From: Candidatus Egerieisoma sp. | GTDB lineage: Bacteria > Bacteroidota > Bacteroidia > Bacteroidales > UBA932 | Direction: 5' to 3' | Assembly: GCA_045592425.1 (NCBI GenBank) | Contig: JAZNUT010000018.1 | Span: 5,108-69,107 of the forward strand | DNA length: 64,000 bases | In this document: positions 8,150 through 29,452 of the stretch, one piece after another | How positions within the stretch are numbered: the stretch's first letter is position 1 | How the letters are laid out: every line of letters begins with the position of its first letter | Notes under the pieces: model-generated | The model's input: the letters and a program-made list of their open reading frames with translations, nothing else | Databases searched by the model: none | Told to the model about the DNA's origin: nothing | Translations under genes and position numbers: made by a program

Positions 8150-11100
8150 ATGGAGAAAATTAGCAAAGTACTACTTCTAGGTTCCGGTGCACTTAAAATT
8201 GGTGAGGCCGGTGAGTTTGATTATTCCGGTTCACAGGCTATCAAGGCCATGAAGGACGAGGGAATAGAGACAATCCTTATAAATCCTAATATTGCAACAG
8301 TACAGACATCAGAGGGTGTTGCAGACAAAATATATTACCTTCCTGTCACCCCTTACTTTGTGGAGCAGGTTATCAAGAAAGAGAAGCCTCAGGGTATCCT
8401 TCTTGCATTTGGCGGCCAGACTGCACTTAACTGTGGAGTTGAGCTCTACAGGACAGGTATCCTTGAAAAATACAATCTTCAGGTTCTTGGCACCCCTGTA
8501 CAGGCTATCATGGATACTGAGGACCGTGAGCTTTTCAACAAAAAACTCGATGAGATTGATGTCAAAACCATCAAGAGCCACGCTGTAGAGAACTTGGAAG
8601 ATGCAGTTGCTGCAGCAAAAGAGCTTGGTTATCCTGTAATTATCCGTGCAGCTTATGCTTTGGGAGGTTTGGGTTCAGGTTTCTGCAACAATGAGGAGGA
8701 GTTGGTAAAACTTGCCGAGAAATCATTCACTTTCTCACCACAAGTTTTGGTGGAGAAATCTCTAAAAGGTTGGAAAGAGATTGAGTTTGAAGTTGTAAGG
8801 GACAAATATGACAACTGCGTTACAGTATGTAACATGGAGAACTTCGACCCTCTTGGAATCCACACCGGAGAGAGTATTGTGGTTGCCCCTTGTCAGACCC
8901 TTACAAACTCAGAGTTGCATAAACTTAGAGATATTGCAATTAGAATCGTAAGACATATTGGTATTGTAGGTGAGTGTAACGTACAGTACGCATTTGATAC
9001 TGAGAGTGAGGATTACAGGGTAATTGAGATCAATGCCCGTTTGAGCCGTTCTTCTGCATTGGCATCAAAAGCTACAGGTTATCCTTTGGCATTTGTAGCA
9101 GCAAAGATTGGCTTGGGTTACGGTTTGTTTGAGCTCAAGAACTCTGCAAACGGTCTTACCCCTGCATTTATGGAGCCTTCTTGCGACTACATAGTATGTA
9201 AGATGCCACGTTGGGACCTTTCAAAATTCCAGGGTGTGAGCCGTGAGATTGGTTCTTCAATGAAGAGTGTTGGTGAGATTATGTCTATTGGCCGTACTTT
9301 TGAGGAGGTTATCCAGAAAGGTATCCGTATGATAGGACAAGGTGCCCACGGCTTTGTCGCAAACAAGGAGATTGTTGTAAATGACATTGACAAAGCACTT
9401 CGCCAACCTACCGACAACCGTATTTTTGTAATATCAAAAGCATTCAATGCCGGCTATACAGTTGAGCAGATCCACGAGCTTACAAAAATTGACAAATGGT
9501 TCTTGGACAAGCTATACAATATCATTATCACCGGTAAAGAGCTTATGGCTCTAAACAGCACCGAGGAGTTGGGCTACGACCTTATGAAAAAGGCAAAACG
9601 CCAGGGATTCTCAGATTTCCAGATTGCAAGACTTGTTCTAAAGGAGCTTACAGCACAGGATTCCGACCTTGGTAGTGCAACTATAAGAAAATACAGGAAA
9701 TCATTGGGCATCCTTCCTGTTGTAAAACAGATAGATACCCTTGCCGGTGAGTATCCTGCAAAAATCAACTACCTGTACTTGTCATATAGCGGAGACAAAC
9801 ACGACATTGAGTTTGCAGATGACAAGAAATCAATTATTGTGCTTGGTTCTGGTGCATATAGGATTGGTAGTTCCGTTGAGTTTGACTGGTGTAGCGTAAA
9901 CGCCCTTACTACAATCCAGAAATGCGGTTGGAGAGGTGTAATGATAAACTACAACCCTGAAACAGTATCTACAGACTACGACATGTGTGACAGGCTCTAC
10001 TTTGATGAGCTTACATATGAGCGTGTTATGGATATCCACGATTTGGAGAATCCTCACGGTATGGTAGTATCTGTAGGTGGACAGATTCCTAACAACCTTG
10101 CACTTAAACTCGATGCCAACGGTGTAAACATCCTTGGTACCCAGGCTAAATATATAGACAACGCAGAGGACAGACACAAATTCTCATCTATGCTGGATAC
10201 CCTTGAGATAGACCAGCCTAAGTGGAAAGAGCTTTCTACAATGTCTGATGTTTACGAGTTTGTAGATAAAGTTGGTTTCCCTGTTCTTGTAAGACCATCT
10301 TATGTACTTTCGGGTGCAGCAATGAACGTATGTTCAAATAAGGTTGAGCTTGAGCAGTTCCTTAACCTTGCTGCAAACGTTTCAAAGAAGCATCCTGTTG
10401 TTGTAAGTGAGTTCATCCAGAACGCTAAGGAGATTGAGTTTGACGCAGTTGCAGACAAAGGTGAGGTTATTGCCTATGCTATCTCAGAGCACATTGAGTT
10501 TGCAGGTGTCCACTCGGGAGATGCAACTATCCAGTTCCCTCCTCAGAAACTATATATTGAAACAGCCCGCAGAATAAAGAAGATTGCCCGTAAGATTGCT
10601 CAGGCTCTTCAGATTACAGGTCCTTTCAATATCCAGTTCCTTGCAAAAGAGAATGCCATTAAGGTTATTGAGTGTAACCTTAGAGCATCAAGAAGTTTCC
10701 CATTTGTATCCAAAGTACTTAAGATAAACTTCATTGAACTTGCAGCAAAAGCTATGATCGGCCAGCCGTACGAGATTCCTAACAAGAGTGCGTTTGACTT
10801 GGATTACGTAGGTATCAAAGCTTCACAGTTCTCATTTGCCCGTTTGCTTAAAGCAGACCCTGTCCTTGGTGTGGATATGGCTTCTACAGGTGAGGTAGGC
10901 TGTTTGGGTGATGACACCAACGAGGCTATCCTCAAATCCATGCTTTCTGTAGGCTACAAGATTCCTCAGAAGAACATACTTCTTTCTACAGGAGATGCAA
11001 GACAAAAGGCAGAGCTTCTTTCAGCTGCCAAAATGCTTGCAGACAAAGGTTACAGTTTGTTTGCAACCGGCGGTTCATGGAAATATCTTGTAGAGAACAA

Positions 11101-11374
11101 TATCCCTGCTACCAGAGTATATTGGCCAACAGAGCCTTCTATGGAGCCTCAGGCAATGGATATGCTTACAAACAAACAGATAGATATGGTTGTAAACATT
11201 CCTAAGAACCTTACCCAGGAGGAGTTGGAGAACGGTTACAAGGTAAGACGTGCTGCTGTGGATTTCAATATTCCACTAATTACAAATGCCCGTCTTGCAA
11301 GTGCATTCATCAACGCATTCTGTAATGTTCCGCTTGAGAAAATTCAGATTAAGAGTTGGGATGAGTACAGATAA
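8150..11374 (+). CDS. carB: carbamoyl-phosphate synthase large subunit
   Basis: 1074 aa with duplicated ATP-grasp halves (LLGSGALKIGEAGEFDYSGSQA; VLGSGAYRIGSSVEFDWC) and an MGS-like C-terminal domain. Confidence 0.95.
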   Translation: MEKISKVLLLGSGALKIGEAGEFDYSGSQAIKAMKDEGIETILINPNIATVQTSEGVADKIYYLPVTPYFVEQVIKKEKPQGILLAFGGQTALNCGVELYRTGILEKYNLQVLGTPVQAIMDTEDRELFNKKLDEIDVKTIKSHAVENLEDAVAAAKELGYPVIIRAAYALGGLGSGFCNNEEELVKLAEKSFTFSPQVLVEKSLKGWKEIEFEVVRDKYDNCVTVCNMENFDPLGIHTGESIVVAPCQTLTNSELHKLRDIAIRIVRHIGIVGECNVQYAFDTESEDYRVIEINARLSRSSALASKATGYPLAFVAAKIGLGYGLFELKNSANGLTPAFMEPSCDYIVCKMPRWDLSKFQGVSREIGSSMKSVGEIMSIGRTFEEVIQKGIRMIGQGAHGFVANKEIVVNDIDKALRQPTDNRIFVISKAFNAGYTVEQIHELTKIDKWFLDKLYNIIITGKELMALNSTEELGYDLMKKAKRQGFSDFQIARLVLKELTAQDSDLGSATIRKYRKSLGILPVVKQIDTLAGEYPAKINYLYLSYSGDKHDIEFADDKKSIIVLGSGAYRIGSSVEFDWCSVNALTTIQKCGWRGVMINYNPETVSTDYDMCDRLYFDELTYERVMDIHDLENPHGMVVSVGGQIPNNLALKLDANGVNILGTQAKYIDNAEDRHKFSSMLDTLEIDQPKWKELSTMSDVYEFVDKVGFPVLVRPSYVLSGAAMNVCSNKVELEQFLNLAANVSKKHPVVVSEFIQNAKEIEFDAVADKGEVIAYAISEHIEFAGVHSGDATIQFPPQKLYIETARRIKKIARKIAQALQITGPFNIQFLAKENAIKVIECNLRASRSFPFVSKVLKINFIELAAKAMIGQPYEIPNKSAFDLDYVGIKASQFSFARLLKADPVLGVDMASTGEVGCLGDDTNEAILKSMLSVGYKIPQKNILLSTGDARQKAELLSAAKMLADKGYSLFATGGSWKYLVENNIPATRVYWPTEPSMEPQAMDMLTNKQIDMVVNIPKNLTQEELENGYKVRRAAVDFNIPLITNARLASAFINAFCNVPLEKIQIKSWDEYR

Positions 11375-11377
11375 TAT

Positions 11378-12394
11378 ATGGATATATTACTTTTAATTAT
11401 AGGATTGGCGCTTATTATTATAGGCGCCAATTATCTTGTAGATGGAGCCAGTGCAATTGCAAAAAGGGCCGGACTATCCGATTTTATAATTGGAATGACC
11501 ATTGTGGGTATTGGGACATCCACCCCAGAGATGGTAGTTAGTTTTGCATCAGCAATTAAAGGGAATGCAGACATGGCAGTTGGAAATGTTTTGGGTTCAA
11601 ACATGTTCAATACCTTAATGATATTGGGATGCACAGCCCTCCTCTCTCCTATTGCCCTAACCTCAAACAACATTAAAAAAGATATTCCTTTCTCACTGTT
11701 GGCAGCTTTTGTCCTATGCGTAATGGGATGTTCCACAATATTGGACGGAACAACAGCAAACACCATCACCAGAGTAAACGGAATCATGCTTTTGTGCATG
11801 TTTGGAATCTTTATGGCCTATACAATCTATTCCAGCACATCTGCAGCAGGAAGTTCTCTGCATACAAATTCCCCTACAGCAGACAATTCTCTTCCCGACA
11901 GCTCAAATGACAATAATTTGTCGGGAAGGAAAAAGGTGACTCCTGTATGGCTTGCAATCATAATGGTCCTTGGAGGACTCTGTGGGCTGGTATTTGGTGG
12001 AGACATGTTTGTTAACTCAGCTTCTTCATTGGCCCGCAAACTTGGAATTTCTGATGCTGTAATTGCCATGACCATTGTTGCAGGGGGAACTTCTCTTCCA
12101 GAACTTGCCTCATGCATTGTAGCGGCTATAAAGAAAAATACAGACCAGGCCCTTGGAAATGTTATTGGCTCCAATGTGAGCAACATTTTCCTTATCCTTG
12201 GAGGAAGTGCCACCATCCATCCGCTGGTAATGAACGGTGTAAAGCCACAAGACCTTATAACCCTGATGCTCAGTGCCCTGCTGGTATTCCTGTTTGCATT
12301 TACATTCAAGAAAAAGAAAATTGACAGGATAGAGGGGGGATTGCTCGTATGTATATACATTGCATTTATCTGGCTCTCACTATCGGCATTGTAA
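11378..12394 (+). CDS. CaCA-family Na+/Ca2+ (YrbG-like) antiporter
   Basis: Two alpha-repeat halves (GTSTPEMVVS; GTSLPELASC) separated by a hydrophilic loop. Confidence 0.85.
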   Translation: MDILLLIIGLALIIIGANYLVDGASAIAKRAGLSDFIIGMTIVGIGTSTPEMVVSFASAIKGNADMAVGNVLGSNMFNTLMILGCTALLSPIALTSNNIKKDIPFSLLAAFVLCVMGCSTILDGTTANTITRVNGIMLLCMFGIFMAYTIYSSTSAAGSSLHTNSPTADNSLPDSSNDNNLSGRKKVTPVWLAIIMVLGGLCGLVFGGDMFVNSASSLARKLGISDAVIAMTIVAGGTSLPELASCIVAAIKKNTDQALGNVIGSNVSNIFLILGGSATIHPLVMNGVKPQDLITLMLSALLVFLFAFTFKKKKIDRIEGGLLVCIYIAFIWLSLSAL

Positions 12395-12415
12395 CAGAAT
12401 GTTTATGATAAATTA

Positions 12416-12455
12416 AAGGAGGATGACAGTAAAAGTCATCCTCCTTTTGCTTTTT
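12416..12455 (+). terminator. rho-independent terminator after the antiporter gene
   Basis: AAGGAGGATGAC-AGTAAAA-GTCATCCTCCTT followed by TTGCTTTTT. Confidence 0.8.
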
Positions 12456-12471
12456 GGCACTATAAATTTAT

Positions 12472-12479
12472 TACTTTTG
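12472..12479 (+). promoter_or_regulatory. possible -7 promoter box (TACTTTTG) of the marR-hdr-like operon; adjacent 10-bp palindrome ATAAATTTAT at 12462-12471
   Basis: TAnnTTTG match 28 nt upstream of the marR ATG. The palindrome could be a MarR operator. Confidence 0.3.
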
Positions 12480-12507
12480 CGTAATGTAAACCATTTTACT
12501 ATAAAAT

Positions 12508-12993
12508 ATGATACTCAATAAACAGATAGGTGTATTTCTAAACTTTGTGCACAACAGGACAAAGCAATATATTTCAAACATTTTGCAGGATGAAGGGTTT
12601 AATATTACACCGGAGCAGTTTCTGGTTATGGATGCCCTATGGAACGAGGGGACAATGTCCCAGCAGCAACTCTCCCTAAACTTGATGAAGGACAAGAACT
12701 CCATTGTCAAACTTATAGACGGGCTTGAGAAGAAAGGTCTTGTACAGCGTGTTGCTGACAAGAAAGACAGACGCCAGAATCTTATAGAGCTTACCCCTGC
12801 AGCATGGGAGATTAAAGAGAAGGTGACAGAGGTTGCAATAAATGCAGTAAACTATGTAATAAAAGATATTCCTCAGGAGGAGATTGCAGTATTCATAAAG
12901 GTTCTCAGCAAAATGGCCGAGAATATGAATGAGGATACAGATTTGTTGGCTCTTGCAAAGAAAGGGAAATACCCTTCTGAAATAGAATATTAA
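12508..12993 (+). CDS. MarR-family transcriptional regulator
   Basis: Winged-helix MarR pattern (ITPEQFLVMDALWNEGTMSQQQLSLNLMKDKNSIVKLIDGLEKKGLVQRVADKKDRRQNLIELT). Confidence 0.88.
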   Translation: MILNKQIGVFLNFVHNRTKQYISNILQDEGFNITPEQFLVMDALWNEGTMSQQQLSLNLMKDKNSIVKLIDGLEKKGLVQRVADKKDRRQNLIELTPAAWEIKEKVTEVAINAVNYVIKDIPQEEIAVFIKVLSKMAENMNEDTDLLALAKKGKYPSEIEY

Positions 12994-13011
12994 ACGGCAA
13001 AATATTGAATC

Positions 13012-13707
13012 ATGGCAAAATTATATGACTTGCTTACAGAAGACTACAGAATAAAGGAAGGGCTGAAAGCGTGTATCAATTGTGGTACATGTACAGCAAT
13101 TTGCCCTGCAGCGGAGTTCTACAAATATGATCCGCGCAGGATAGTGGATATTGTACAGAGCAAGGATGAGGCACAGATTGAAGAGCTTCTTAAGAGTGAG
13201 ACAATCTGGTATTGCGGAGAGTGCATGTCATGCCTTACAAGGTGTCCCCGTAAAAATGCACCGGGGCTGATAATTATGGCCCTGAGGAACCTCTCAATGG
13301 AATTGGGCTATTTTACACACAGCGAGAAGGGAAGACAACAATATGCACTCACAAAAATAATGTCTGAAAACATCCTCAATTACGGCTACTGTGTATATGC
13401 CAGAACCTTCAAATCAGCAGACCACCCGGAGGCCGGACCTGTTTGGGAGTGGATTGAACAGAATATGGATGATGTATATGAGCGTAATGGTGCAAATCTG
13501 GATGGAGAAGGTCCTGGAGCTCTCAGAAAGATACCTCAGGAAGATCTTGACCAGCTGAAAAGGATCTTTGACCACACCGGAGCAACAAAAAGGATTGAGA
13601 CCATTAACCGCTGCTCCATGGAGAAGGCAAAAGAGATGGACCTTACTCCCGACGAATACTTCAACCATGTATTCAACGTCTCTGAAAAGGAGCATTTGAA
13701 CCAATAG
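13012..13707 (+). CDS. HdrC-like 2x[4Fe-4S] protein
   Basis: Two ferredoxin motifs, CINCGTCTAICP and CGECMSCLTRCP, with HdrC-type spacing; 231 aa. Confidence 0.75.
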   Translation: MAKLYDLLTEDYRIKEGLKACINCGTCTAICPAAEFYKYDPRRIVDIVQSKDEAQIEELLKSETIWYCGECMSCLTRCPRKNAPGLIIMALRNLSMELGYFTHSEKGRQQYALTKIMSENILNYGYCVYARTFKSADHPEAGPVWEWIEQNMDDVYERNGANLDGEGPGALRKIPQEDLDQLKRIFDHTGATKRIETINRCSMEKAKEMDLTPDEYFNHVFNVSEKEHLNQ

Positions 13708-13719
13708 AAAACTAAAAAG

Positions 13720-14784
13720 ATGATATACCAAGGAAAACAGAAAATATGGAGTGATTATCAGAAGGAGATTCCCGATGACCACTACTTTTATGTAAGGAGC
13801 TGTATCAGACAGAACCTTTTTCCTGCCAGTGAGAAGACTTTCCTGGACATAACCAGGAACAAGCTGGGGAAGGATTTCTTTGAGACAGAGCACCATACCA
13901 CCTGCGGAGGAATAGCGTACCATTGTGACACCATTCCTCAGGAGACCTCCATGACCATTATTGCAAGGCAATTCGCCCTGATGCACAAATACGGTTATGA
14001 GAACTATGTATGCTCATGTATAACCTCGTTCGGCTTATATACAGAGACACTTGAGACATGGCATGAATTTCCCCAACTTGAGGCAAAAATTAGGGAAAAC
14101 CTTTGGGAAACCTGCCGTCTTGAGTTTGCCAAGCCAAAATACCTTGCCCACGCAAGTGACATAATATACAAATACCGCAACCTGATTGCCGAACAGGCCA
14201 AATATAAGCTTATAAATAAAAAAACGGGCGAGCCTCTAAGAGTTGTTGAGCACATTGGATGCCACTACGGAAAAATGTTCCCGAGCAAGAGTGTCGGAGG
14301 GGCAGAATACCCTTATGTACTTGCCGGAATGATTGAAGCATGGGGAGGAGAAGTGATAGATTACCCTGAGAGGAGACACTGTTGCGGCTATGGCTTCCGC
14401 CAATACCACATTAGGAGCAACAGAGGTTACTCTTTGGCCAACACTCACAAGAAGTTTGAGAGCATGGAGCCTTACAAACCGGATATGATAATTACCAACT
14501 GCCCCGGCTGTCCATATTTTCTTGACCGTTGGCAATATGTAATAGCTGAAATGGAGGGTAAAACCTATGGAGAAAACGGCCACGGAATCCCTGTATTCAC
14601 CTATGAGGAGGTTGCCGGACTTGTCCTTGGGTATGACCCTTGGGATTTGGGACTTCAGATGCACCAGATTGGCCCCGAGCCTCTACTGGACAAAATGGGA
14701 ATCCCATACGACCCTAACGCCAAGTACAAAGGGGTAAACAACAAAGATTTGGGCAGACCGGAACTCCCAAGTTGTTTGAAATAA
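13720..14784 (+). CDS. HdrB-like CCG-domain protein
   Basis: The C-terminal CCG domain is canonical (GCHYG...RRHCCGYG...ITNCPGCP). The N-terminal copy is degenerate (SCIRQ...TTCGGIAYHC...VCSC). Confidence 0.75.
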   Translation: MIYQGKQKIWSDYQKEIPDDHYFYVRSCIRQNLFPASEKTFLDITRNKLGKDFFETEHHTTCGGIAYHCDTIPQETSMTIIARQFALMHKYGYENYVCSCITSFGLYTETLETWHEFPQLEAKIRENLWETCRLEFAKPKYLAHASDIIYKYRNLIAEQAKYKLINKKTGEPLRVVEHIGCHYGKMFPSKSVGGAEYPYVLAGMIEAWGGEVIDYPERRHCCGYGFRQYHIRSNRGYSLANTHKKFESMEPYKPDMIITNCPGCPYFLDRWQYVIAEMEGKTYGENGHGIPVFTYEEVAGLVLGYDPWDLGLQMHQIGPEPLLDKMGIPYDPNAKYKGVNNKDLGRPELPSCLK

Positions 14785-14828
14785 CGTTGTCTTTTTGTAC
14801 AATTAAAAGATTATAAAGCAATTACAAA

Positions 14829-15848
14829 ATGAAAAATATAGTAATCATTGGTGGAGGCCCTGCCGGACTGCAGGCCGGTGCAGAATTGAATGATTTGGGC
14901 TACAATGTAATACTCATAGAGAAATCCCCTACCCTTGGCGGACATCTTGCCAAATGGGACAGGCTTTTTCCCAATGGAGAAAAGGCAAGTGATGTACTGG
15001 ACAAGCTTATAAAGCGGATAAACGGGGTAAAATGCTTTACCCAAACTAAAATTCAGAGTATAAACCTCCTTAAAAGTTCTTATAATGTCATCTTGGACAA
15101 CGGTATTACAGTACTGGCAGATGCCGTTCTGTTTGCCACAGGTTTTGACCTGTTCAGGGCACAGAAAAAAGAGGAATACGGATACGGCATCTATGACAGG
15201 GTAATAACAAATGCAGATCTTGAGCAGTGGTTCAGCAGCCACAATGACAAGAGGATAGTAAAGAGCCCAAAAAGGATAGGTTTTGTGCACTGTGTTGGCT
15301 CCCGAGATGAGAAAGCCGGCAACAGATACTGTTCAAAGGTTTGCTGTGCCACTGCCGTAAAACAGGCCTGCGAGATAAAACAGGAGTTCCCTGATGCAGA
15401 GGTATTCTGCTTTTATATGGATTTGAGAATGTTCTCAAGAGGATTTGAGGACATGTACTTGAATGCGCAAAAAGATTACGGAATAAGATTCATCAGAGGA
15501 AGGGTCTCTGAGGTTGCAGAAAACATAAATAAAGAACTGATTGTTAAAGCAGAAGACACTTTGAGCGGGAAACCGGTAAAAGTGACATTGGATCTGCTTG
15601 TACTTATGAGCGGAATGCAGAATTGTGGAGAAGGTGCAGAAGTAGCCTCTCAATTGGGAATACACAACAGTCCGCAGGACGGGTTCTTTGAGACCTCCGA
15701 GGGAATCCTTGGTCTGCAATACAGCAAAAAACCGGGAGTATTCTTTGCAGGTGCCTGCACTGGTCCAAAAACTCTTCCCGACAGCTTGAATGAGGCAAGT
15801 TCTGCAGCCCTTGCAATCCACCAATACATAAAAACCAAGAATAAGTGA
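14829..15848 (+). CDS. short HdrA-like FAD/[4Fe-4S] flavoprotein
   Basis: GGGPAG dinucleotide fold. HCVGSRDEKAGNRYCSKVCC fits the HdrA cluster motif CxGxRDx(6-8)CSxxCC. At 339 aa it matches the short sHdrA/QmoA-size forms. Confidence 0.78.
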   Translation: MKNIVIIGGGPAGLQAGAELNDLGYNVILIEKSPTLGGHLAKWDRLFPNGEKASDVLDKLIKRINGVKCFTQTKIQSINLLKSSYNVILDNGITVLADAVLFATGFDLFRAQKKEEYGYGIYDRVITNADLEQWFSSHNDKRIVKSPKRIGFVHCVGSRDEKAGNRYCSKVCCATAVKQACEIKQEFPDAEVFCFYMDLRMFSRGFEDMYLNAQKDYGIRFIRGRVSEVAENINKELIVKAEDTLSGKPVKVTLDLLVLMSGMQNCGEGAEVASQLGIHNSPQDGFFETSEGILGLQYSKKPGVFFAGACTGPKTLPDSLNEASSAALAIHQYIKTKNK

Positions 15849-16171
15849 TGGAAAAGTTTGGATTTACCCTCAGCCCCAGTTCCAGAATAGACCTGGATAA
15901 AGTGGATAAGGAAAAATTTGCCAGACTGGTAAAAATAGAACCCGATGTGCTCAAATGTATGGCTTGCGGAAGCTGCAGTGCAAGCTGCACAGCCGGCAAG
16001 TTTACCCCTACCAGCCTCAGAAGTGCAATACTTGCACTGCAGAACGGCAAACCCCAACAGGCATTGGATATGCTAAAAGGGTGCCTTTTGTGCGGTAAAT
16101 GCACAATGGTATGTCCTCGGGCAATAAATACCAGACATCTTATTCTGGCAATAAACTCAATATATCAATAG
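15848..16171 (+). CDS. small HdrC2-like di-cluster ferredoxin
   Basis: CMACGSCSASC and CLLCGKCTMVCP motifs. The ATG overlaps the upstream TGA (GTGATG). Confidence 0.65.
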   Translation: MEKFGFTLSPSSRIDLDKVDKEKFARLVKIEPDVLKCMACGSCSASCTAGKFTPTSLRSAILALQNGKPQQALDMLKGCLLCGKCTMVCPRAINTRHLILAINSIYQ

Positions 16172-16210
16172 GAACCTGGAACAGTGCTCTGTTCCAAAAA
16201 TGGAATTGAA

Positions 16211-18049
16211 ATGAGAGAAAGAATCTTGGGAGGATATGATGATTTTGTTCTGCCGTTCATGATAGGAATTGTGTTCATTCTCATCTATCTTTTTATAGGG
16301 CTTATAAGAATCTTCAAACACATGCCACTGAAAGACCGTGTGAGGTTCTTCAAATCGCTCACCAACCCAATAACAATGTTCAAAAATGTAAAAGATATAA
16401 TTTATGACTGTCTTTTGCATGTAAAGATATTCAAAAGGAACCTTCTACTTGGTTATATGCATGCCAGCATAGCACTCGGATGGTTCATGCTTATAGTTAT
16501 AGGACACATTGAGGTGGCATTGTATGTACCTCAAAGAAATGGTATCCTGTACTATCCTGTATTTTTCAGATATTTTGTAAAGCAGGAAGGGGACCTTTCC
16601 CTTAAAGGGGCATTCTTCTTCTTCCTTATGGATTTCTTCCTCCTTATAGTGCTGTCGGGAATAGGACTGGCAATTTATAAAAGGTTCCGTTCAAGGGCAC
16701 TGGGGATGCGCAGAACCACAAAACCATGCCTTGCAGACAGAATTGCACTGGCCTGCCTGTGGAGCATTTTTCCATTGAGGCTCCTCGCAGAGAGCTTTAC
16801 TGCCGGAATTGCAGGTGGAAGTTTCCTTACCAAACCAATGTACTGGCTCTTTGCAAACTTCCTTGCAAATGACTCACACATCCTGCCGACATGGTGGGCA
16901 TACTCAACTGCATTGGGACTCTTCTTCCTTGCACTGCCGTTCAGCAGATATATGCATATACCAACAGAGGCATTTCTTATCATGCTCAGAAATGCAGGAA
17001 TAAAGGCAAGTCACCCAAGAAAAGGATTTGCAGAGGCAGAGATTTACTCATGCTCCAGCTGCGGTATCTGTATAGATGCCTGTCCTATGAATATCCAGAA
17101 AAAGAATCTCCCATACTCCTCGGTATATATGGTAAGATTCCTCAGGAGACGCAACAAAAAGAAAACCGGAATTATTGCAGACAAATGCCTTATGTGCGGC
17201 AAATGTGTTGCACTGTGCCCTGTAGGGGTAGATTCGTGCAATCTTAAAAGGAAACAGAGGGAGATTGTCTATAATGAGCAGAAATATGATTACAGCTATT
17301 TGAGCGGGGCAAAACATCCCGCTGGAGATACATCCAATGAGGCAGTTGTTGCCCCTGCCAAAGAGGAGAAGATTCTCTATTTTGCCGGTTGCATGACACA
17401 TCTTACCCCATCAATCATAAAGAACCTTACAGGAATCTTTGAACTGTCGGGAACAGAATATGTATTTGCAGACAAAGATGGTGGGGTGTGCTGTGGAAGG
17501 CCCCTTATCCTTGCCGGGAAAGAGGATGCAGCCAAAGAGGTGATTGCAAAAAATACCGCCCTTATAAAAGGGAGCGGTTGCAAGAAGGTGGTCCTCTCCT
17601 GCCCTATCTGCCTTAAAGTGCTCAAAGAGGAGTACAAACTGCCGGGAATTGAGCTGTTGCACCATACCCAGTTTATAAACAATCTCATTATTGAGGGTAA
17701 GATTAAGGTTAAAAACAGCGGGGAGAGCATGGTATATCACAACCCTTGTGAGCTTGGACGCGGATGTGGAATATATCAGGAGCCTGTTAATGTCCTACAA
17801 CAGCTTGGAGAGCTACGCAAAGGTGAAAAAGAGGGGAAAGAGAGCATCTGCTGCGGAGGAAGCCTTGGAAGCCTCACCCTAAGCTATGATGACCGCTCAA
17901 AAATAACCCAGGGATCACTCAATGCCCTTATGGTAAACAACCCGAGCAAGATAATTACAGCATGTCCGCTATGCCTTAAAACCTTTGCGGACAAGAGTAC
18001 TGCACCAGTTATGGATATAGCTCAAATTGTAAGGGAGAACATTTGTTAA
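16211..18049 (+). CDS. polytopic membrane domain fused to an HdrD-like (2x[4Fe-4S] + two CCG) module
   Basis: The N-terminal ~260 aa are hydrophobic with conserved His residues (YMHASIALGWFMLIVIGH; SRYMHIPTE). These are followed by CSSCGICIDACP, CLMCGKCVALCP, VCCGRP...SCPICL and ICCGGSLG...ACPLCL. The track start at 16184 is GTG, so ATG at 16211 is preferred. Confidence 0.7.
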   Translation: MRERILGGYDDFVLPFMIGIVFILIYLFIGLIRIFKHMPLKDRVRFFKSLTNPITMFKNVKDIIYDCLLHVKIFKRNLLLGYMHASIALGWFMLIVIGHIEVALYVPQRNGILYYPVFFRYFVKQEGDLSLKGAFFFFLMDFFLLIVLSGIGLAIYKRFRSRALGMRRTTKPCLADRIALACLWSIFPLRLLAESFTAGIAGGSFLTKPMYWLFANFLANDSHILPTWWAYSTALGLFFLALPFSRYMHIPTEAFLIMLRNAGIKASHPRKGFAEAEIYSCSSCGICIDACPMNIQKKNLPYSSVYMVRFLRRRNKKKTGIIADKCLMCGKCVALCPVGVDSCNLKRKQREIVYNEQKYDYSYLSGAKHPAGDTSNEAVVAPAKEEKILYFAGCMTHLTPSIIKNLTGIFELSGTEYVFADKDGGVCCGRPLILAGKEDAAKEVIAKNTALIKGSGCKKVVLSCPICLKVLKEEYKLPGIELLHHTQFINNLIIEGKIKVKNSGESMVYHNPCELGRGCGIYQEPVNVLQQLGELRKGEKEGKESICCGGSLGSLTLSYDDRSKITQGSLNALMVNNPSKIITACPLCLKTFADKSTAPVMDIAQIVRENIC

Positions 18050-18093
18050 ACATGTTTAAATAACGTACTTTTGCACCCTCAAACAAGAATCTT

Positions 18094-19380
18094 ATGGAAA
18101 TAAAACCTACTTCTTATAAACTTGAGAACTGTGCCACAAAACGTCAGTTCAAAGATGAAGGCTGGACACTTGCAGATCCTCAGCACAAAGACCCTACACT
18201 TGTAAGAGCCATTTATGAGAAAAAACAGATAGAGTTCAAGGACAACTCTTACGGAATATACAAATTTGCAGACTGGATGCCAATAAGCAGAATGCTTGAG
18301 GGATCTTGTGCCCCTGTAACTTACAAGAGTGAGGCTCTTGCAAAAGAGCTTGGGCTTGAGAACCTTTACATAACATTCAGCGGATGGTGGCCACAAAAGG
18401 GGGCAACAATGCCAACCTGTTCGTTCAAGGAGACAGAGGCATACTCTGTGTGTGCAAGACTGCCAAAAGATAACAACCGCATATTGGTGGTTGCATCCGC
18501 AGGCAACACTGCCAGAGCATTTGCACAGGTTTGCTCAAACAACAATATTCCAATTGTAATAGCAATACCTTACGACAACCTAAATGCACTTTGGTTCCGT
18601 CAGCCACTCAACGATTGCGTAAAGATTATCTGTACCCCATCCGGCTCAGACTATTTTGATGCCATAGCACTTGCCGCAAAACTTAACGGCAGCCCAAGAT
18701 ATATGGAAGAGGGAGGGGCAAAAAATGTGGCCCGCAGAGACGGTATGGCAACAACAGTCCTTTCTGCAGCACAGGTGATAGGCCGTATTCCCGACAGCTA
18801 TTTCCAGGCAGTAGGAAGCGGCACAGGTACCATTGCAGCATACGAGTCCAACATAAGACTGATTGAAGACGGCAGATTTGGAAGCCATCTTATGAAGCTT
18901 ATCCCATCCCAGAACATCCCATTCACCCCAATGTATGACGCCTTTAAGGCAGACAGCAGGGCTCTACTTCCATTTGATGAGGATAAGGCACGAGTAGAGG
19001 CACTTGAGATTACTGCAAAAGTTCTCTCAAACCGCAAACCGCCATACAGTATTGCCGGAGGCCTATACGATGTCCTAAAAGAGAGTAATGGAGATATGGA
19101 GATTGTAACCAACGGGGAACTTGCAGCAGCATGTGATTTGTTTGAAAAACTGGAGGGAATTGATATCCATCCTGCAGCAGGAGTTGCAGTGGAGAGTTTG
19201 CGTAAAGCAATTGCAGCCGGAAAAGTGAGGAAAGATGAAGTTGTAATGCTTAACATTACCGGTGGTGGTGAGAAACTCTTCAAAGCGGAGCATAACTGGA
19301 TAAATGTGGAGCCTCATCTTGTAATGGATGCCTCTACCCCAGCCCAGGATGTAATTGATGCAGTTGACAAATTATTTTAA
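18094..19380 (+). CDS. threonine-synthase-fold PLP enzyme, probable cysteate synthase
   Basis: 428 aa with PLP-lysine context CSFKETEA, a tryptophan-synthase-beta fold pattern (VVASAGNTARAF; GSGTGTIAAYE), and an N-terminal extension resembling the cysteate synthase family rather than ThrC. Assigned from memory of the family and not searched. Confidence 0.55.
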   Translation: MEIKPTSYKLENCATKRQFKDEGWTLADPQHKDPTLVRAIYEKKQIEFKDNSYGIYKFADWMPISRMLEGSCAPVTYKSEALAKELGLENLYITFSGWWPQKGATMPTCSFKETEAYSVCARLPKDNNRILVVASAGNTARAFAQVCSNNNIPIVIAIPYDNLNALWFRQPLNDCVKIICTPSGSDYFDAIALAAKLNGSPRYMEEGGAKNVARRDGMATTVLSAAQVIGRIPDSYFQAVGSGTGTIAAYESNIRLIEDGRFGSHLMKLIPSQNIPFTPMYDAFKADSRALLPFDEDKARVEALEITAKVLSNRKPPYSIAGGLYDVLKESNGDMEIVTNGELAAACDLFEKLEGIDIHPAAGVAVESLRKAIAAGKVRKDEVVMLNITGGGEKLFKAEHNWINVEPHLVMDASTPAQDVIDAVDKLF

Positions 19381-19417
19381 CTAACTATAAACTATTCCAA
19401 CCTAACTGAAAACTGAA

Positions 19418-21124
19418 ATGAGCTTTAAATTTTCTGAGGTATTCCAGCCCAAATTATTTGAGCTATTCAAAAAAGGAAACTACAATAAACAGACCTTTAC
19501 AGCAGACCTCATTGCGGGTGTTATTGTAGGTATCATTGCACTTCCTTTGGCAATCGCATTTGGTATTGCCAGTGGAGTATCACCACAACAAGGTCTTATA
19601 ACTGCAGTGGTTGCAGGTTTCCTTGTATCCTTCTTTGGAGGATCAAACTTCCTTATTGGAGGTCCTACAGGAGCATTCATTGTAATTGTCTATGGAATTG
19701 TTGCCCAATACGGCATTTCAGGACTTATCGTTGCCACAGTTCTGGCAGGTATTATTCTGGTGCTGATGGGTATATTCAAATTGGGAAGTATCATCAAATT
19801 CATCCCATACCCAATTGTAGTTGGATTTACCAGCGGTATTGCGGTGGTAATCTTCTCCACACAGGTAAAGGACTTCCTTGGACTTACAATTGAGAACCTT
19901 CCAAGTGAGTTCATACCACAGTGGAGTGCATACTTCTCACACATTGCAACATTCAGACTTCACGAGTTCCTTTTGAGCCTGGGTTGTTTGCTTGTAATCA
20001 TCTTCTGGCCTAAAGTAACCAACAAAGTTCCAGGTTCACTTATTGCCATTATCCTTGGAACAGCTGCTTCAATCCTCCTTACAAAATTTGGAGTTGTTGA
20101 GTTTGCAACTATCGGGAGCAAATTCCCTGAACTTGCAAATGGCATAGAGGTTCCAAAACCTGTGGCACCACACATTACCTGGGATACAGTTCAGAATATG
20201 TTCCAGCCTGCATTTACAATTGCCCTTTTGTGTGCTATTGAGTCTTTGCTTGCTGCAATGGTGGCAGATGGTGTAACCGGCAAAAAACACAACTCAAACA
20301 CAGAGCTTATAGGACAGGGTATAGCAAATATCATTACCCCATTCTTTGGTGGTATCCCTGCTACAGGTGCTTTGGCAAGAACAATGGCAAACATAAACAA
20401 CGGTGGAAAAACTCCGGTTGCCGGTCTTGTACACGCAGTTGTACTGTTGCTTATCTTCCTCTTCCTAATGCCTTATGCAGTGTATATCCCTCTTGGATGT
20501 CTTGCAGCAATCCTTGTAATGGTTGCATACAACATGAGTGAGTGGAGAACATTCAAATACTTGTTGAAAGGAAACAAGACAGACGTTGCGGTACTGCTTA
20601 TCACCTTCTTCCTAACTGTAATCATTGACCTTACAGTAGCAATTGAGGTTGGTCTTGTACTTGCAATCATCCTGTTTGTAAAACGTATCTCAGAGACCTC
20701 TTCAATCAAGGTACTGGATGGCGAGACAGTTCCAGGTACAGAGAACGACGAGATTGCAATGCTTGCAGACACAGAACATCTTGATGTAGAGCAAGGCGTT
20801 GAGATATATGAGATTGACGGTCCTTTCTTCTTTGGACTTGCCAGCAAACTCGACGAGATTGACCACGTACGCAACGCCGAGATTAAAGTGCGAATCATCC
20901 GTATGAGAAAAGTACCTTTCATGGACTCAACAGGATTGAACAACTTGCGCAGTTTGTGGAAACGCTCATCAAAAGATGGTGTACAGATAATCCTTAGCGG
21001 TGTGAATGACAATGTCCTTGCATACCTTAACAAGGTGGGCTTTGCACAGGAACTTGGCAAAGAGTACATCTTCCCTCACATCATCCCTGCCGTAGCCAAG
21101 GCAAATGAATTGAGCAGGAAATAA
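19418..21124 (+). CDS. SulP-family anion permease with C-terminal STAS domain
   Basis: SulP signature region (DLIAGVIVGIIALPLAIAFGIASGVSPQQGL) and a STAS tail (YEIDGPFFFG...RMRKVPFMDSTGL). Confidence 0.9.
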   Translation: MSFKFSEVFQPKLFELFKKGNYNKQTFTADLIAGVIVGIIALPLAIAFGIASGVSPQQGLITAVVAGFLVSFFGGSNFLIGGPTGAFIVIVYGIVAQYGISGLIVATVLAGIILVLMGIFKLGSIIKFIPYPIVVGFTSGIAVVIFSTQVKDFLGLTIENLPSEFIPQWSAYFSHIATFRLHEFLLSLGCLLVIIFWPKVTNKVPGSLIAIILGTAASILLTKFGVVEFATIGSKFPELANGIEVPKPVAPHITWDTVQNMFQPAFTIALLCAIESLLAAMVADGVTGKKHNSNTELIGQGIANIITPFFGGIPATGALARTMANINNGGKTPVAGLVHAVVLLLIFLFLMPYAVYIPLGCLAAILVMVAYNMSEWRTFKYLLKGNKTDVAVLLITFFLTVIIDLTVAIEVGLVLAIILFVKRISETSSIKVLDGETVPGTENDEIAMLADTEHLDVEQGVEIYEIDGPFFFGLASKLDEIDHVRNAEIKVRIIRMRKVPFMDSTGLNNLRSLWKRSSKDGVQIILSGVNDNVLAYLNKVGFAQELGKEYIFPHIIPAVAKANELSRK

Positions 21125-21154
21125 GCCTGAAAGCGCTCCCTGCGTGAGCAGTAA

Positions 21155-21188
21155 TAAAAAAGCCACTCCTTTAGTGAGTGGCTTTTTT
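21155..21188 (+). terminator. bidirectional-looking rho-independent terminator after the SulP gene
   Basis: AAAAAAGCCACTC-CTTTAGT-GAGTGGCTTTTTT. Confidence 0.85.
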
Positions 21189-21197
21189 ATTATGACT

Positions 21198-21340
21198 CAC
21201 TTAACTTTGTGCAAAAATTGGCCTCTGATTGCGCAAACATTTGTTCTCCACTTAACTTTGTGCAGAAAATGGCGTTATACTGCACAAACTTCAACACACA
21301 ACGCAACTTTGTGCAGGAAATGACTTATTTTTGCACAAAC
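21198..21340. repeat. three tandem 51-bp units, each containing the inverted repeat CTTTGTGCA-N16-TGC(G/A)CAAAC
   Basis: CTTTGTGCA occurs at 21205, 21256 and 21307. TGCGCAAAC/TGCACAAAC occurs at 21230, 21281 and 21332. The period is exactly 51 bp. Confidence 0.85.
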
Positions 21341-21353
21341 AGAGAACAAACTG

Positions 21354-22343
21354 ATGGGAAAATTCACACTAATAGCATCAATGATAGCCGGACTGCTGCT
21401 GGCACTCGTCCCTAACCTGATGTGGGTTATCGGGAAGATAATAGCACTTCTGGCACATAAAAGACTCCCCTATGCCCCATTTGGCTGGAGCGGAGTTGCC
21501 CTTGCACTGCTGCTTTGGGGATGTGTGGCATACGGCTATTATTACGGCCGCTGGGGGCTTGAAGTGAAAAATATGGAATATTCCCACCCCCAGATTCCAA
21601 CCCCGTTCAAAGGGTTTAAAATAGTGCACATATCAGACCTGCACCTCTCCACATTTGATGACAATCCTTCCAAACTGCAGCGTATCATAGATACCATAAA
21701 CGCACAGGATGCAGACCTGATTTGCTTTACCGGGGATATGGTAACACTTGGTACCAGCGAGGCCAGACCATACACCCAGATGCTTCAGGGATTAAAAGCC
21801 ACCTACGGAGTGGCCTCAGTACTGGGCAACCACGACATGCTCATCTACGGAAACCGCTTTGGAGGAGATACCACCGCACAGGCAACAGCAGTAGAAGAAT
21901 TTGCAGACTACCAGAGAGAAGAGCTCAGTTGGCATCTTTTACGCAACACCAGCTTCCCGATAGTTAAAGATTCCTGCAAGATTACCATCCTGGGAGTAGA
22001 TAACAAAAGCTGTACAAATCAGGGATTCAGAAGCACAAACACCGGAGACCTGGATGCTGCAATGGCCGGAACAGACGGCTTCTGCATCCTCCTCTCCCAC
22101 GACCCTACCCACTGGAGTGCTGAGGTTGTACCACAAACAGACATCCCTTTAACCCTCTCAGGCCACACCCACGCAGCCCAAATCAAACTCTTTGGATTTA
22201 CCCCTGCATCATGGGCCTTCAAGCACACCCACGGCCTATACGAGCAGGATGGCCAGACCCTATACATTAACATTGGCCTCGGCTGCACCGCCCCGGTAAG
22301 AATTGGCGCCACACCGGAGGTGACGGTGATTACTTTCGTCTAA
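21354..22343 (+). CDS. membrane-anchored calcineurin-like metallophosphoesterase
   Basis: N-terminal TM helices followed by the motifs HISDLH, GDMV, GNHD and GHTH. Confidence 0.85.
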   Translation: MGKFTLIASMIAGLLLALVPNLMWVIGKIIALLAHKRLPYAPFGWSGVALALLLWGCVAYGYYYGRWGLEVKNMEYSHPQIPTPFKGFKIVHISDLHLSTFDDNPSKLQRIIDTINAQDADLICFTGDMVTLGTSEARPYTQMLQGLKATYGVASVLGNHDMLIYGNRFGGDTTAQATAVEEFADYQREELSWHLLRNTSFPIVKDSCKITILGVDNKSCTNQGFRSTNTGDLDAAMAGTDGFCILLSHDPTHWSAEVVPQTDIPLTLSGHTHAAQIKLFGFTPASWAFKHTHGLYEQDGQTLYINIGLGCTAPVRIGATPEVTVITFV

Positions 22344-23037
22344 GCTCATCCAAATAAGCAGACGTGATAATGCCGGACGGGAGAGCAATCAGAGCAATTC
22401 CAACAACGGCAGAAATCATACTGATAATCCTGCCTGTAGTGGTAATGGGATAAACATCACCATATCCCACTGTGGTAAGGGTACACGCAGCCCAATAGAT
22501 AGCATCAAAAAAAGACTCAATCATTGGTTCACCATCAACATTGAAAATGAGCAAAGCCGTACAGAATACATAAAAAATTGCGAGGACAAGAACAGTAGCC
22601 AGAGTCTTAGCCTCCTGCCTTATAACCCTTATCATTATCTGCAAAGGGGGATAATATCTAAGGAACTTCACCACCCTGAGGATCTTGGTCAGTCTGGCAA
22701 TTCTAAGGAGTTTGAATGACGGATTAAGCAAACTGAGTGTAGGCAAAATTGATAACAGATCCACAATAGCCCACCCGTTAAGAGGATAAGTTACAAATGC
22801 CATCACCTTGCTCTTGTTTGATCTCAAATCTGCTGTAAACCACCTGAGCAAATAATCTGCAACAAAGACAATACAGCAGAAAACATCTATTACATCAAAC
22901 CAATAATTATGTACCCTAAACATCAAAGGAAAAATGCTAAGGCAAATAATAACAAGCATGAACCAATCATAAACTCTGCTTAAAAAATCATCCTTGCTTG
23001 GTTCAATTATCAAATTAATTCTGCTTCTGAAATCCAT
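22330..23037 (-). CDS. voltage-sensor-containing K+ channel (6TM, no cytoplasmic domains)
   Basis: S4-like RIARLTKILRVVKFLR and selectivity filter TTVGYGD. It overlaps the convergent upstream gene by 14 nt. Confidence 0.85.
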   Translation of the reverse strand: MDFRSRINLIIEPSKDDFLSRVYDWFMLVIICLSIFPLMFRVHNYWFDVIDVFCCIVFVADYLLRWFTADLRSNKSKVMAFVTYPLNGWAIVDLLSILPTLSLLNPSFKLLRIARLTKILRVVKFLRYYPPLQIMIRVIRQEAKTLATVLVLAIFYVFCTALLIFNVDGEPMIESFFDAIYWAACTLTTVGYGDVYPITTTGRIISMISAVVGIALIALPSGIITSAYLDELRRK

Positions 23038-27075: not shown

Positions 27076-27112
27076 TCTTTATCAAATAAGTTATAATCGT
27101 TTGCAAATGTAT

Positions 27113-27138
27113 AAAAAAAGAGAGGCCGGTGGCCTCTC
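27113..27138 (-). terminator. rho-independent terminator after the His/Cys-rich lipoprotein gene
   Basis: Minus-sense GAGAGGCC-ACC-GGCCTCTC followed by TTTTTTT. Confidence 0.75.
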
Positions 27139-27158
27139 CTGCACAACTTTTTATGCTG

Positions 27159-27506: not shown

Positions 27507-27556
27507 ATCTTGTATATATTTAGTTATGTTAATATGCAATCCTGGGCAAATTTAGT

Positions 27557-29441: not shown

Positions 29442-29452
29442 ACTGTGTGATT

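Follow-up and report, generated by a model that had tools for sequence, protein, structure and literature searches.

Sulfur-oxidising Hdr-like complexes, known as sHdr systems, are regarded as producers of sulfite, formed by oxidation of carrier-bound sulfane sulfur. They are encoded in two arrangements, type I (shdrC1B1AHC2B2) and type II (shdrC1B1AHB3-etfAB-emo), the second of which is proposed to pass electrons to menaquinone via EMO (PMC11094781). Their association with LbpA and its maturation genes is obligatory (PMC6067878, PMC11094781). A related membrane protein, EtfD, is a five-transmembrane (TM), heme-b protein whose four clusters act as a wire between donors in the cytosol and menaquinone. 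The authors who described it see a relationship to HdrBC and HdrDE, and the first CCG site of EtfD binds a linear 3Fe-4S cluster through four cysteines (PMC13083937). Sulfite is also consumed in biosynthesis. Sulfonolipids, as set out in the consulted part of the pathway literature, arise through cysteate synthase, cysteate fatty-acyltransferase (CFAT), ketocapnine reductase and N-acylation, and the pathway inputs are O-phosphoserine, an acyl thioester, NAD(P)H and sulfite (PMC11211663). The present analysis concerns a probable operon in which Hdr-like genes adjoin a cysteate synthase gene. It lies in a 64-kb stretch of DNA from Candidatus Egerieisoma sp. (contig JAZNUT010000018.1, positions 5,108 to 69,107, + strand; assembly GCA_045592425.1), referred to below as the window.

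Eight tightly spaced + strand open reading frames (ORFs) at 12508-21124 encode, in order, a MarR regulator, proteins resembling HdrC, HdrB and HdrA, a small ferredoxin, a membrane domain fused to an HdrD-like module (MemHdrD), cysteate synthase (cysS) and a SulP-family permease. The five Hdr-like genes are an autonomous module and are always colinear. Comparison of related loci gives good support to a functional tie between this module and sulfonate and sulfonolipid head-group biosynthesis, because single-copy pathway genes became its immediate same-strand neighbours at least three times, in different orders. A specific role is proposed more tentatively, with a probability of roughly 0.48: a MarR-controlled operon may join a membrane-anchored Hdr-like complex, which would oxidise reduced sulfur to sulfite, with the cysteate synthase that would use this sulfite and with SulP.

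The Hdr-like proteins and their described relatives

The HdrC1-like ferredoxin (231 aa, 13012-13707) carries two [4Fe-4S] motifs of the form CxxCxxCxxxCP, CINCGTCTAICP and CGECMSCLTRCP. It matches PDB 5ODC_C (E=1.8e-14), and HdrC models score it at 83 and 80 bits, far under their cutoffs (83 against 270 for the NCBIfam equivalog). The HdrB1-like protein (354 aa, 13720-14784) aligns over its whole length with methanogen HdrB (9SFI_C, E=7e-30) and gives a single Pfam CCG match; the equivalog model reaches 128 of the required 450 bits. Its second CCG domain is canonical and has five cysteines (RRHCCGYG...NCPGCP; C181, C221-222, C261 and C264). The first is degenerate, with TCGG and CSC in place of CCG and CxxC (C28, C62, C98/C100), and only C28, C62 and C100 of this domain are invariant among homologs.

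The third subunit, a short HdrA-like flavoprotein (339 aa, 14829-15848), carries the flavin adenine dinucleotide (FAD)-binding motif GGGPAG, the motif CVGSRDEKAGNRYCSKVCC and a four-cysteine [4Fe-4S] motif (Cys155/168/172/173). Over residues 1-329 it runs colinear with 6TJR, the short sHdrA from Hyphomicrobium (E=1.5e-60). Its core matches methanogen HdrA (5ODC, chain A) at 232 bits; over 230 residues the score is 191 bits, at least equal to that with sHdrA. The N-terminal, inserted and C-terminal ferredoxin domains are absent, and the HdrA2 equivalog model gives 254 bits against a cutoff of 1100. The HdrC2-like ferredoxin (108 aa, 15845-16171) matches Pfam Fer4 families and has two cubane motifs, CMACGSCSASC and CLLCGKCTMVCP; its gene always stands between hdrA and the membrane gene, in close and environmental loci alike.

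MemHdrD (621 aa, 16184-18049) unites in one polypeptide about five hydrophobic or TM segments, two cubane [4Fe-4S] motifs (at C290 and C335) and two complete five-cysteine CCG domains (C403-476 and C522-597). Among 73 homologs, at least 96% retain H79, H93, H108 and H258, and the TM segments and cysteines are conserved as well. The nearest solved relative is Mycobacterium smegmatis EtfD (PDB 9OJN, E=2e-16), with a match that spans the CCG region only. Together, these features point to a quinone-linked module of the HdrED or EtfD (EMO) type with predicted heme binding, in agreement with the membrane-anchored, quinone-linked type proposed in the preliminary description. With EtfD, the protein shares its domain order, that is, about five TM helices with conserved histidines, two cubanes and two CCG domains; with HdrDE, it shares the layout of a cytochrome b (HdrE) joined to HdrD with two complete CCG domains. 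It departs from EtfD in that both of its CCG sites have five cysteines, in that its operon includes no partner electron-transferring flavoprotein (ETF), and in that it is always encoded with HdrC1, HdrB, HdrA and the ferredoxin.

The preliminary description saw in the gene order the signature of an sHdr complex, a comparison that does not carry through. Several traits are shared: the order C1-B1-A-C2-(B2-like), a short HdrA with FAD, one [4Fe-4S] cluster and no ferredoxin domains, a proposed sulfite product and, as in type II, electrons that would reach menaquinone via an EMO-type membrane Fe-S/heme protein. However, the module is not a member of the sHdr family, because sHdrH, LbpA and TusA/DsrE are absent, because the first CCG domain of HdrB1 is degenerate where sHdrB1 has two noncubane-cluster CCG sites, and because the HdrA core resembles sHdrA no more closely than it does methanogen HdrA. 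Lipoate ligase and synthase are also lacking, as is EtfAB in the window operon; the B2-like protein and the membrane domain form a single fusion; and the host is a fermentative gut anaerobe in which the context of the genes is biosynthetic, not dissimilatory. The main text of the sHdr survey makes no mention of taxa whose names begin with Bacteroid (PMC11094781).

Resemblance to the other Hdr-type systems is similarly partial. HdrB and HdrC over their full lengths and HdrA over its core align with solved methanogen subunits (5ODC, 9SFI); unlike methanogen Hdr, the module misses the equivalog cutoffs, its HdrA lacks ferredoxin domains, and it has neither an Mvh or Fdh partner nor a coenzyme M (CoM)/coenzyme B (CoB) pathway. 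In sulfate reducers, QmoABC and DsrMK(JOP) also couple sulfur redox chemistry (adenosine phosphosulfate [APS]/sulfite and the DsrC trisulfide) to menaquinone by means of Hdr-type flavoprotein, Fe-S and membrane cytochrome-b modules. The Hdr-like proteins of the window, in contrast, score only 23-51 bits with the QmoC, DsrK, TmcB and HmcF models, whose cutoffs lie at 300-750 (QmoC, 51 of 300; DsrK, 36 of 400), and aprAB, dsrAB and dsrC are missing from the window. On these comparisons the module looks like a hybrid of sHdr and HdrDE that belongs to none of the sHdr, methanogen Hdr, Qmo or DsrMK groups.

These absences rest on a Pfam survey of the window that covered the non-nested ORFs of at least 130 aa and four of nine small intergenic ORFs; the remaining five were set aside on visual inspection as overlapping or low-complexity frames. 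The survey found none of sat, cysDN, cysH, aprAB or dsr genes and no alpha-oxoamine synthase (CFAT) gene in the 64 kb, and, combined with a TusA-motif scan, no lipoate-binding protein, lipoate ligase, TusA, DsrE or rhodanese. The earlier statement that the window holds no sat/cysDN/cysH/aprAB, lipoate-binding protein, TusA or DsrE genes is thereby borne out for the window. Its other readings of the sequence fared similarly: the eight ORFs lie between two terminators as described, all of the motifs quoted for HdrC, HdrB and HdrA are present, and the eight gene assignments agree with Pfam, NCBIfam and PDB sequence searches and with the motifs.

The partners of the five-gene module are assigned with differing precision. 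The product of cysS (428 aa, 18094-19380) had been described as a threonine-synthase-fold, pyridoxal-phosphate (PLP)-dependent enzyme resembling cysteate synthase, with genuine threonine synthase as the stated alternative. It scores 451.4 bits with TIGR03844 (cutoff, 324.9), compared with 64 bits for the best ThrC model, and 574.6 bits with PDB 9K3C_A ('cysteate synthase', from the Alistipes lineage), in a gapless 426-aa alignment of residues 3-428 with 4-429; threonine synthases in the PDB reach at most 47 bits. By family assignment, it is a genuine cysteate synthase, and a look-up returned no record of its exact sequence.

The SulP-family permease with its STAS domain (568 aa, 19418-21124) is recognised by Pfam Sulfate_transp (300 bits), STAS (49 bits) and TIGR00815 (396 against 380). 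Its best curated model is the aspartate/C4-dicarboxylate carrier DauA, at 520 bits of a cutoff of 614 that is not reached, rather than a sulfate carrier. Since cysteate is an analogue of aspartate, SulP may, as an idea, carry cysteate rather than a sulfur oxyanion. The gene is present in 18 of the 80 close loci, is confined to the sub-clade of the window, and is found in none of the lineages in which the module is linked to CFAT or ComA.

The MarR-family regulator (161 aa, 12508-12993; Pfam MarR, 49 bits against a cutoff of 24.6) has homologs in 53 of the 80 closest loci by tblastn, almost always immediately upstream of the core and only in the clade of the window; among 80 environmental loci, only L166 and L167, both within this clade, have one. 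Outside the clade, the core is accompanied by an Rrf2 regulator or by none.

Distribution of the module and its sulfonate neighbours

HdrB-like homologs form more than 2600 clusters at 90% identity and occur in at least 578 species-representative genomes. Among the matches listed, the closest come from metagenome-assembled genomes (MAGs) of gut and rumen Bacteroidales, namely Candidatus Egerieisoma (95-96% identity), followed by Candidatus Cryptobacteroides, Limimorpha and Egerieousia. An exhaustive search of 1.84 billion representatives places the HdrB-like family in one full-length cluster at more than 50% identity, with the next full-length relatives at 41-47%. All characterised membrane-anchored copies are from Bacteroidota-type MAGs. 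The order C1-B-A-ferredoxin-MemHdrD is kept wherever the contig permits it to be followed, in the 80 closest loci, in five divergent Bacteroidota contexts and in 80 environmental metagenome loci. When neighbouring ORFs were clustered de novo, only these five genes were conserved; every accessory family appeared in 12 or fewer of 84 loci.

Outgroups retain only the soluble part and lack the membrane anchor. The nearest of them, in Planktothrix and Phormidium (L081:9281-13600 and L082), keeps hdrC1-B1-A-C2-B2 unfused, as a five-gene cluster with large PAS-domain sensor kinases on its flanks, and its HdrB is 41-44% identical to that of the window and 66-80% identical to the query P0130. Versions of C1-B1-A with a fused or separate B2 occur in polysaccharide-biosynthesis clusters of a Deltaproteobacteria MAG and a JGI contig. 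The soluble cores at L083:5028-10187, L084 and L087:2947-8559 are always followed by an Amidohydro_2 gene and have as neighbours a flippase, glycosyltransferases, a GFO_IDH_MocA-hexapeptide fusion and Wzy; HdrC1 of L087 carries a fused Rrf2 regulator domain. A 'BPL_LplA_LipB' neighbour in L086 was considered as a lipoate ligase and set aside as weak: it lies on the opposite strand, recurs in five loci only, and its QGRG...W motif is presumably of the biotin-ligase type.

The preliminary description asked whether the Hdr-like set tracks cysteate synthase. It does so within the clade of the window, where cysS stands directly downstream of the membrane gene in 42 of the 64 close loci with enough flanking sequence (median gap 16 nt, range -20 to +92). 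It also adjoins the membrane gene in L166, L167 and L093, the last of which is a European Nucleotide Archive (ENA) metagenome contig with an HdrB sequence named by NCBI for MAG GWF2_40_14 that shows the full eight-gene arrangement. In a tree of concatenated C1, B and A sequences, the adjacency is one ancestral arrangement with three losses, one affecting a large sub-clade and the other two isolated, and it persisted while identity to the window fell to about 54% for HdrA and about 60% for CysS. The count of 42 nevertheless exaggerates the association. The arrangement amounts to roughly one gain and three losses, no cysS adjacency was found outside the clade (0/5 divergent contexts and 0/78 environmental loci), and 66 of 117 scorable loci are without a nearby sulfonate gene.

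Alistipes, the sulfonolipid producer available in culture, provides a different setting for cysS (10001-11293), where it begins 18 nt downstream of a pair of genes resembling saccharopine dehydrogenase and carboxynorspermidine decarboxylase (polyamine synthesis) and precedes a TonB receptor and histidine-utilisation (hut) genes. Taken alone, the cysS adjacency is weak evidence, because it reflects one ancestral event, belongs to a more general synteny of the clade, and is matched by an unrelated context in Alistipes.

The link becomes stronger than originally claimed once loci with other sulfonolipid genes are considered. L056, from a human-gut MAG of the same family as the window, has a tight ten-gene string composed of a gene for a glyoxalase-fold protein, CFAT, an SDR gene, C1-B-A-ferredoxin-MemHdrD and cysS; the arrangement of L065 is similar. 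The CFAT of L056 scores 543 bits to 7U7H and 539 to 28EH ('cysteate-C-fatty acyltransferase'), compared with 231 to serine palmitoyltransferase, and its CysS scores 460 bits with TIGR03844. In a distant lineage (L103, L114, L115 and L141), genes for CFAT, a ThrC-fold PLP enzyme, an SDR and the glyoxalase-fold protein come directly after the membrane gene, on its strand. Here, the CFAT of L103, a 417-aa alpha-oxoamine synthase, scores 648 bits to 7U7H, 584 to 28EH and 257 to serine palmitoyltransferase. By these sequence scores, the enzymes of L103 and L056 are genuine cysteate fatty-acyltransferases, nearer to the solved CFATs than to serine palmitoyltransferase, KBL or BioF; 7U7H is taken here to be SulA of A. 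finegoldii, although its PDB title does not say so. The arrangements thus recall the capnine/sulfobacin pathway (cysteate synthase, CFAT/SulA/CapB and ketocapnine reductase), with cysteate synthase in the window and CFAT and SDR in related loci, and they differ from the published pathway descriptions, which name neither a sulfite-supplying component nor Hdr-like genes.

A third lineage (L085 and L095) has ComA, phosphosulfolactate synthase (Pfam, 300 bits), in a same-strand string downstream of the core; this enzyme also consumes sulfite but is unrelated to cysteate synthase. Across these lineages, which lie well apart on the MemHdrD tree, sulfonate or sulfonolipid genes joined the module at least three separate times in differing gene orders. 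With about two flanking slots among about 2500 genes, four target genes and a few dozen independent neighbourhoods, the chance expectation of three independent joinings is well below 1e-3 as a rough order-of-magnitude estimate.

The linked loci also contain less familiar partners. The ThrC-fold PLP enzyme (L114:13112-14425, L115:4134-5447, L141:13222-14541 and L103:5612-6925) has an N-terminal zinc ribbon, and its gene adjoins CFAT. Assignment as cysteate synthase by family model failed (125 bits against 325), as did assignment as ThrC (161 against 303), and threonine synthases are its nearer structures; it is a candidate for a non-orthologous cysteate synthase. Between the lineage of L056 and the distant one, CFAT, SDR and glyoxalase-fold protein are 55-57% identical and the PLP enzymes 22%; to CysS of the window, too, the ThrC-fold enzyme shows only 22% identity. 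The glyoxalase-fold protein (L056:6141-7220, L065:6929-7999 and L114:15226-16326, also in L115 and L141) is about 360 aa long, with a C-terminal glyoxalase/VOC-fold domain and no NCBIfam match. It accompanies CFAT and SDR in two distant lineages at 55% identity and is a candidate for an unrecognised component of the sulfonolipid pathway. The SDR matches only the generic family and was not accepted as a known ketocapnine reductase. ComA was likewise rejected as a general neighbour of the module, as it is present only in the lineage of L085 and L095; there a 252-aa gene with a shikimate-dehydrogenase N-terminal domain comes next after it, beyond a gap of 13-14 nt (L085:15593-17159 and L095:14168-15732), a pair that may represent a bacterial sulfolactate branch.

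A possible sulfite-forming role and its alternatives

The observed gene identities and cofactor motifs, the probable operon structure and the repeated genomic joining with sulfonolipid and sulfonate genes form the basis of the proposed mechanism. From them, we infer assembly of a complex, its coupling to heme and quinone, its substrate, the direction of its electrons and its sulfite product. The five subunits would form an Fe-S flavoprotein complex in which two Fe-S arms meet at the FAD of the HdrA-like protein, one made of HdrC1 and HdrB1 and the other of the 108-aa ferredoxin and the fused HdrD-like protein, whose membrane domain would connect to menaquinone through heme b. A noncubane cluster of a CCG domain would be the site at which sulfide or carrier-bound sulfane sulfur is oxidised to sulfite, and electrons would travel from this site along the Fe-S chain, by way of FAD, to heme b and on to menaquinone. 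From this sulfite and O-phosphoserine, cysteate synthase would then make cysteate, which serves as the precursor of the head group and would be taken on by CFAT and a ketoreductase towards capnine-type sulfonolipids; in its own lineage, ComA would capture the sulfite instead.

This role is favoured because sulfite alone among the pathway substrates lacks an obvious source. The known sulfonolipid enzymes themselves provide every pathway-specific substrate except this one (PMC11211663), and an anaerobe living on sulfide or cysteine has no obvious source of it. Also in its favour are the sHdr complexes of the order C1-B1-A-C2-B2, for which sulfite is the accepted product and, in type II, menaquinone the proposed acceptor via an EMO (PMC11094781), and the kinship of MemHdrD with EtfD, an Fe-S/heme-b wire to menaquinone. 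Sulfite supply coupled to menaquinone would be the most economical role for the complex. Potentials calculated from textbook values make the oxidation of sulfide to sulfite (-116 mV) with menaquinone (-74 mV) mildly exergonic.

Several observations weigh against a sulfite-forming oxidation. With zero-valent sulfur as substrate, formation of sulfite (about -39 mV) with menaquinone is slightly endergonic under standard conditions, and removal of the product would have to pull the reaction. The first CCG domain of HdrB1 is degenerate. The components that serve sHdr, namely sHdrH, LbpA, its ligases and TusA/DsrE, are absent from the window, and none is recurrent within 10 kb on either side of the module in the 84 loci clustered. 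The adjacency to cysS is largely one inherited arrangement in a clade that also keeps carB and CaCA in synteny, more than half of the scorable loci (66/117) lack a sulfonate gene nearby, and cysS of Alistipes (L090, L091 and L092) has no Hdr-like gene within 10 kb. Soluble relatives of the core have polysaccharide clusters or cyanobacterial sensor kinases as their surroundings.

A more general reading takes the Hdr-like module as a redox or respiratory unit of anaerobic Bacteroidota, serving thiol/disulfide homeostasis or as a quinone-linked electron sink, with no tie to cysteate and with neighbours that reflect inherited synteny and chance. The solitary occurrence of the module in those 66 loci, the presence of each accessory gene in at most 12 of 84, the essentially single origin of the cysS adjacency with Alistipes cysS elsewhere, and regulators that vary by lineage (MarR, Rrf2 or none) would all fit it. 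It nevertheless appears unlikely, as single-copy sulfonolipid and sulfonate genes adjoin the module on the same strand in at least three separate lineages, with non-orthologous PLP enzymes, a rough chance expectation well below 1e-3 and operon-tight junctions. Those same joinings with cysS, CFAT, SDR and ComA establish a link to the pathway and leave its chemistry unspecified, so the complex could perform another task there, such as protection from sulfite, recycling of a thiol or persulfide carrier, or oxidation of a sulfur-containing intermediate; the conserved glyoxalase-fold protein of about 360 aa implies that the pathway has unrecognised steps. This is thought rather improbable, since the characterised steps, in the part of the source consulted, need no Fe-S/quinone redox enzyme and sulfite supply is the one obvious unmet need (PMC11211663).

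The chemistry could also run in the opposite direction, the complex freeing sulfite by reductive S-S cleavage of thiosulfate, S-sulfocysteine or S-sulfoglutathione to a thiol or sulfide plus sulfite. The oxyanion could enter via SulP; menaquinol would be the electron donor, and HdrA might perform flavin-based bifurcation. Both CCG domains of MemHdrD and the second of HdrB are complete five-cysteine sites like those that reduce CoM-S-S-CoB, the sub-clade of the window co-transcribes the SulP anion permease, and a genomic link to sulfite-consuming enzymes is equally expected. Yet SulP is found in just 18 of 80 close loci and in no CFAT- or ComA-linked lineage, its closest NCBIfam model is a C4-dicarboxylate carrier, and the thiosulfate/(sulfide + sulfite) couple lies at about -400 mV, far below menaquinol, with no low-potential donor module encoded. 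Reductive release is accordingly given little credence. Least probable by far is that MemHdrD is an EMO/EtfD-type ETF:menaquinone oxidoreductase for the butyrate pathway with butyryl-CoA dehydrogenase (Bcd) and EtfAB encoded 6.5 kb downstream. Its best solved relative is indeed mycobacterial EtfD, EtfAB and Bcd lie at 27.6-30.6 kb of the window, and a lysine-fermentation cluster is also found downstream in L093. The etf genes, however, belong to a lysine-to-butyrate cluster of their own on the opposite strand, clustering of 84 loci showed no recurrence of ETF genes around the module, MemHdrD is always colinear with hdrC1-B-A and the ferredoxin, and its two complete five-cysteine CCG sites differ from the four-cysteine first site of EtfD.

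Oxidative formation of sulfite for cysteate synthesis may be put in a more far-reaching form, about which greater doubt is warranted. The five-gene module might be an LbpA-independent, menaquinone-coupled anaerobic sulfite synthase and the first anabolic Hdr-type enzyme. It would supply the missing first step of sulfonolipid and ComA-type sulfonate synthesis in strictly anaerobic Bacteroidota, human-gut species included, from sulfide or persulfide and without siroheme, APS or oxygen.

Operon boundaries, surroundings and biological meaning

The 5' boundary of the operon is the terminator of an upstream CaCA-type exchanger gene (12415-12457, +), a perfect 13-bp hairpin at 12415-12447 followed by a T-run. 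The 3' end is marked by an intrinsic terminator at 21155-21188 (+), AAAAAAGCCACTC-N7-GAGTGGCTTTTTT, in which a GCCACTC/GAGTGGC stem is flanked by A6 and T6; it was recognised in the sequence itself and was not listed by the terminator scan. That scan found 18 terminator-like sites on both strands of 11000-23000, compared with 11.4 +/- 3.2 in shuffled sequence. Within the operon, its + strand sites are stems of 5-6 bp, all inside coding sequence, in keeping with the earlier statement that no internal hairpin with a T-tract interrupts a single transcript. Gaps from the first gene to the eighth are 18, 12, 44, -4, 12, 44 and 37 nt, the overlap of hdrA and the ferredoxin gene shrinking to -1 if the second-codon ATG is the ferredoxin start. 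The eight genes likely form one operon; in the 42 related loci with cysS in this place, its junction is tight without exception.

Promoters of Bacteroidetes have the -7 consensus TAnnTTTG. A candidate element of this type, TACTTTTG, lies at 12472-12479 (+), 29 nt upstream of the marR ATG, and the operon would be under MarR control. No riboswitch or other known RNA element is assigned to it, because an Rfam scan of the whole window returned zero matches. Between the sulP terminator and a metallophosphoesterase gene, 21198-21350 holds three tandem 51-nt repeats that are 71-76% identical, each including the palindrome TTTGTGCA-N16-TGCACAAA; such an arrangement might represent either a series of binding sites for a regulator or a repeat element.

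Neighbours of the operon include carAB, the CaCA exchanger, the metallophosphoesterase and a large lysine-to-butyrate fermentation cluster with Bcd-EtfAB, the last of which fits a fermentative anaerobe as host. This cluster (25687-42235, mostly - strand) looks complete. It encodes lysine 2,3-aminomutase, beta-lysine 5,6-aminomutase (KamDE), a BKACE cleavage enzyme, CoA-transferase subunits, butyryl-CoA dehydrogenase with EtfAB, crotonase, 3-hydroxybutyryl-CoA dehydrogenase and a short-chain fatty acid (SCFA) transporter, and it is partly syntenic in L093. Between the SCFA transporter and etfA, a 115-aa lipoprotein-like ORF (27159-27506, -) with His/Cys-rich repeats (HKEGEHKCKH) and no Pfam match may encode a metal-binding protein. 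The combination of cysteate synthase with a 'heterodisulfide reductase' might also recall coenzyme M synthesis, a reading rejected in view of the absence of comDE or other CoM genes from the window. The sole thiamine-pyrophosphate enzyme of the window is taken to be of the acetolactate-synthase type because ilvD adjoins its gene.

Full-text searches, which covered few subscription journals, found no published link of Hdr-like genes to bacterial cysteate synthase or sulfonolipids and no published sulfite source for gut sulfonolipid producers or strict anaerobes. Papers on the sulfonolipid pathway, as far as they were consulted, describe its enzymes from cysteate synthase onward (PMC11211663). 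The products matter to the host: sulfonolipids of gut Bacteroidota act on host immunity and are linked to TLR4 signalling and inflammatory bowel disease, according to the part of the source consulted (PMC11525784).

The module probably has a new physiological role and is the best candidate yet for the acquisition of sulfite by strict anaerobes that make immune-active sulfonolipids. A conserved and very widespread complex that was recruited several times into sulfonolipid operons offers a concrete genetic candidate, and the related loci add two unrecognised candidates for the pathway, the ThrC-like PLP enzyme and the glyoxalase-fold protein. If the complex makes sulfite, it would represent a new physiological role and a new membrane-anchored architecture for the Hdr/sHdr family, together with sulfite formation that dispenses with lipoate-binding proteins, and it would provide both a marker and a target for microbial sulfonolipid production.

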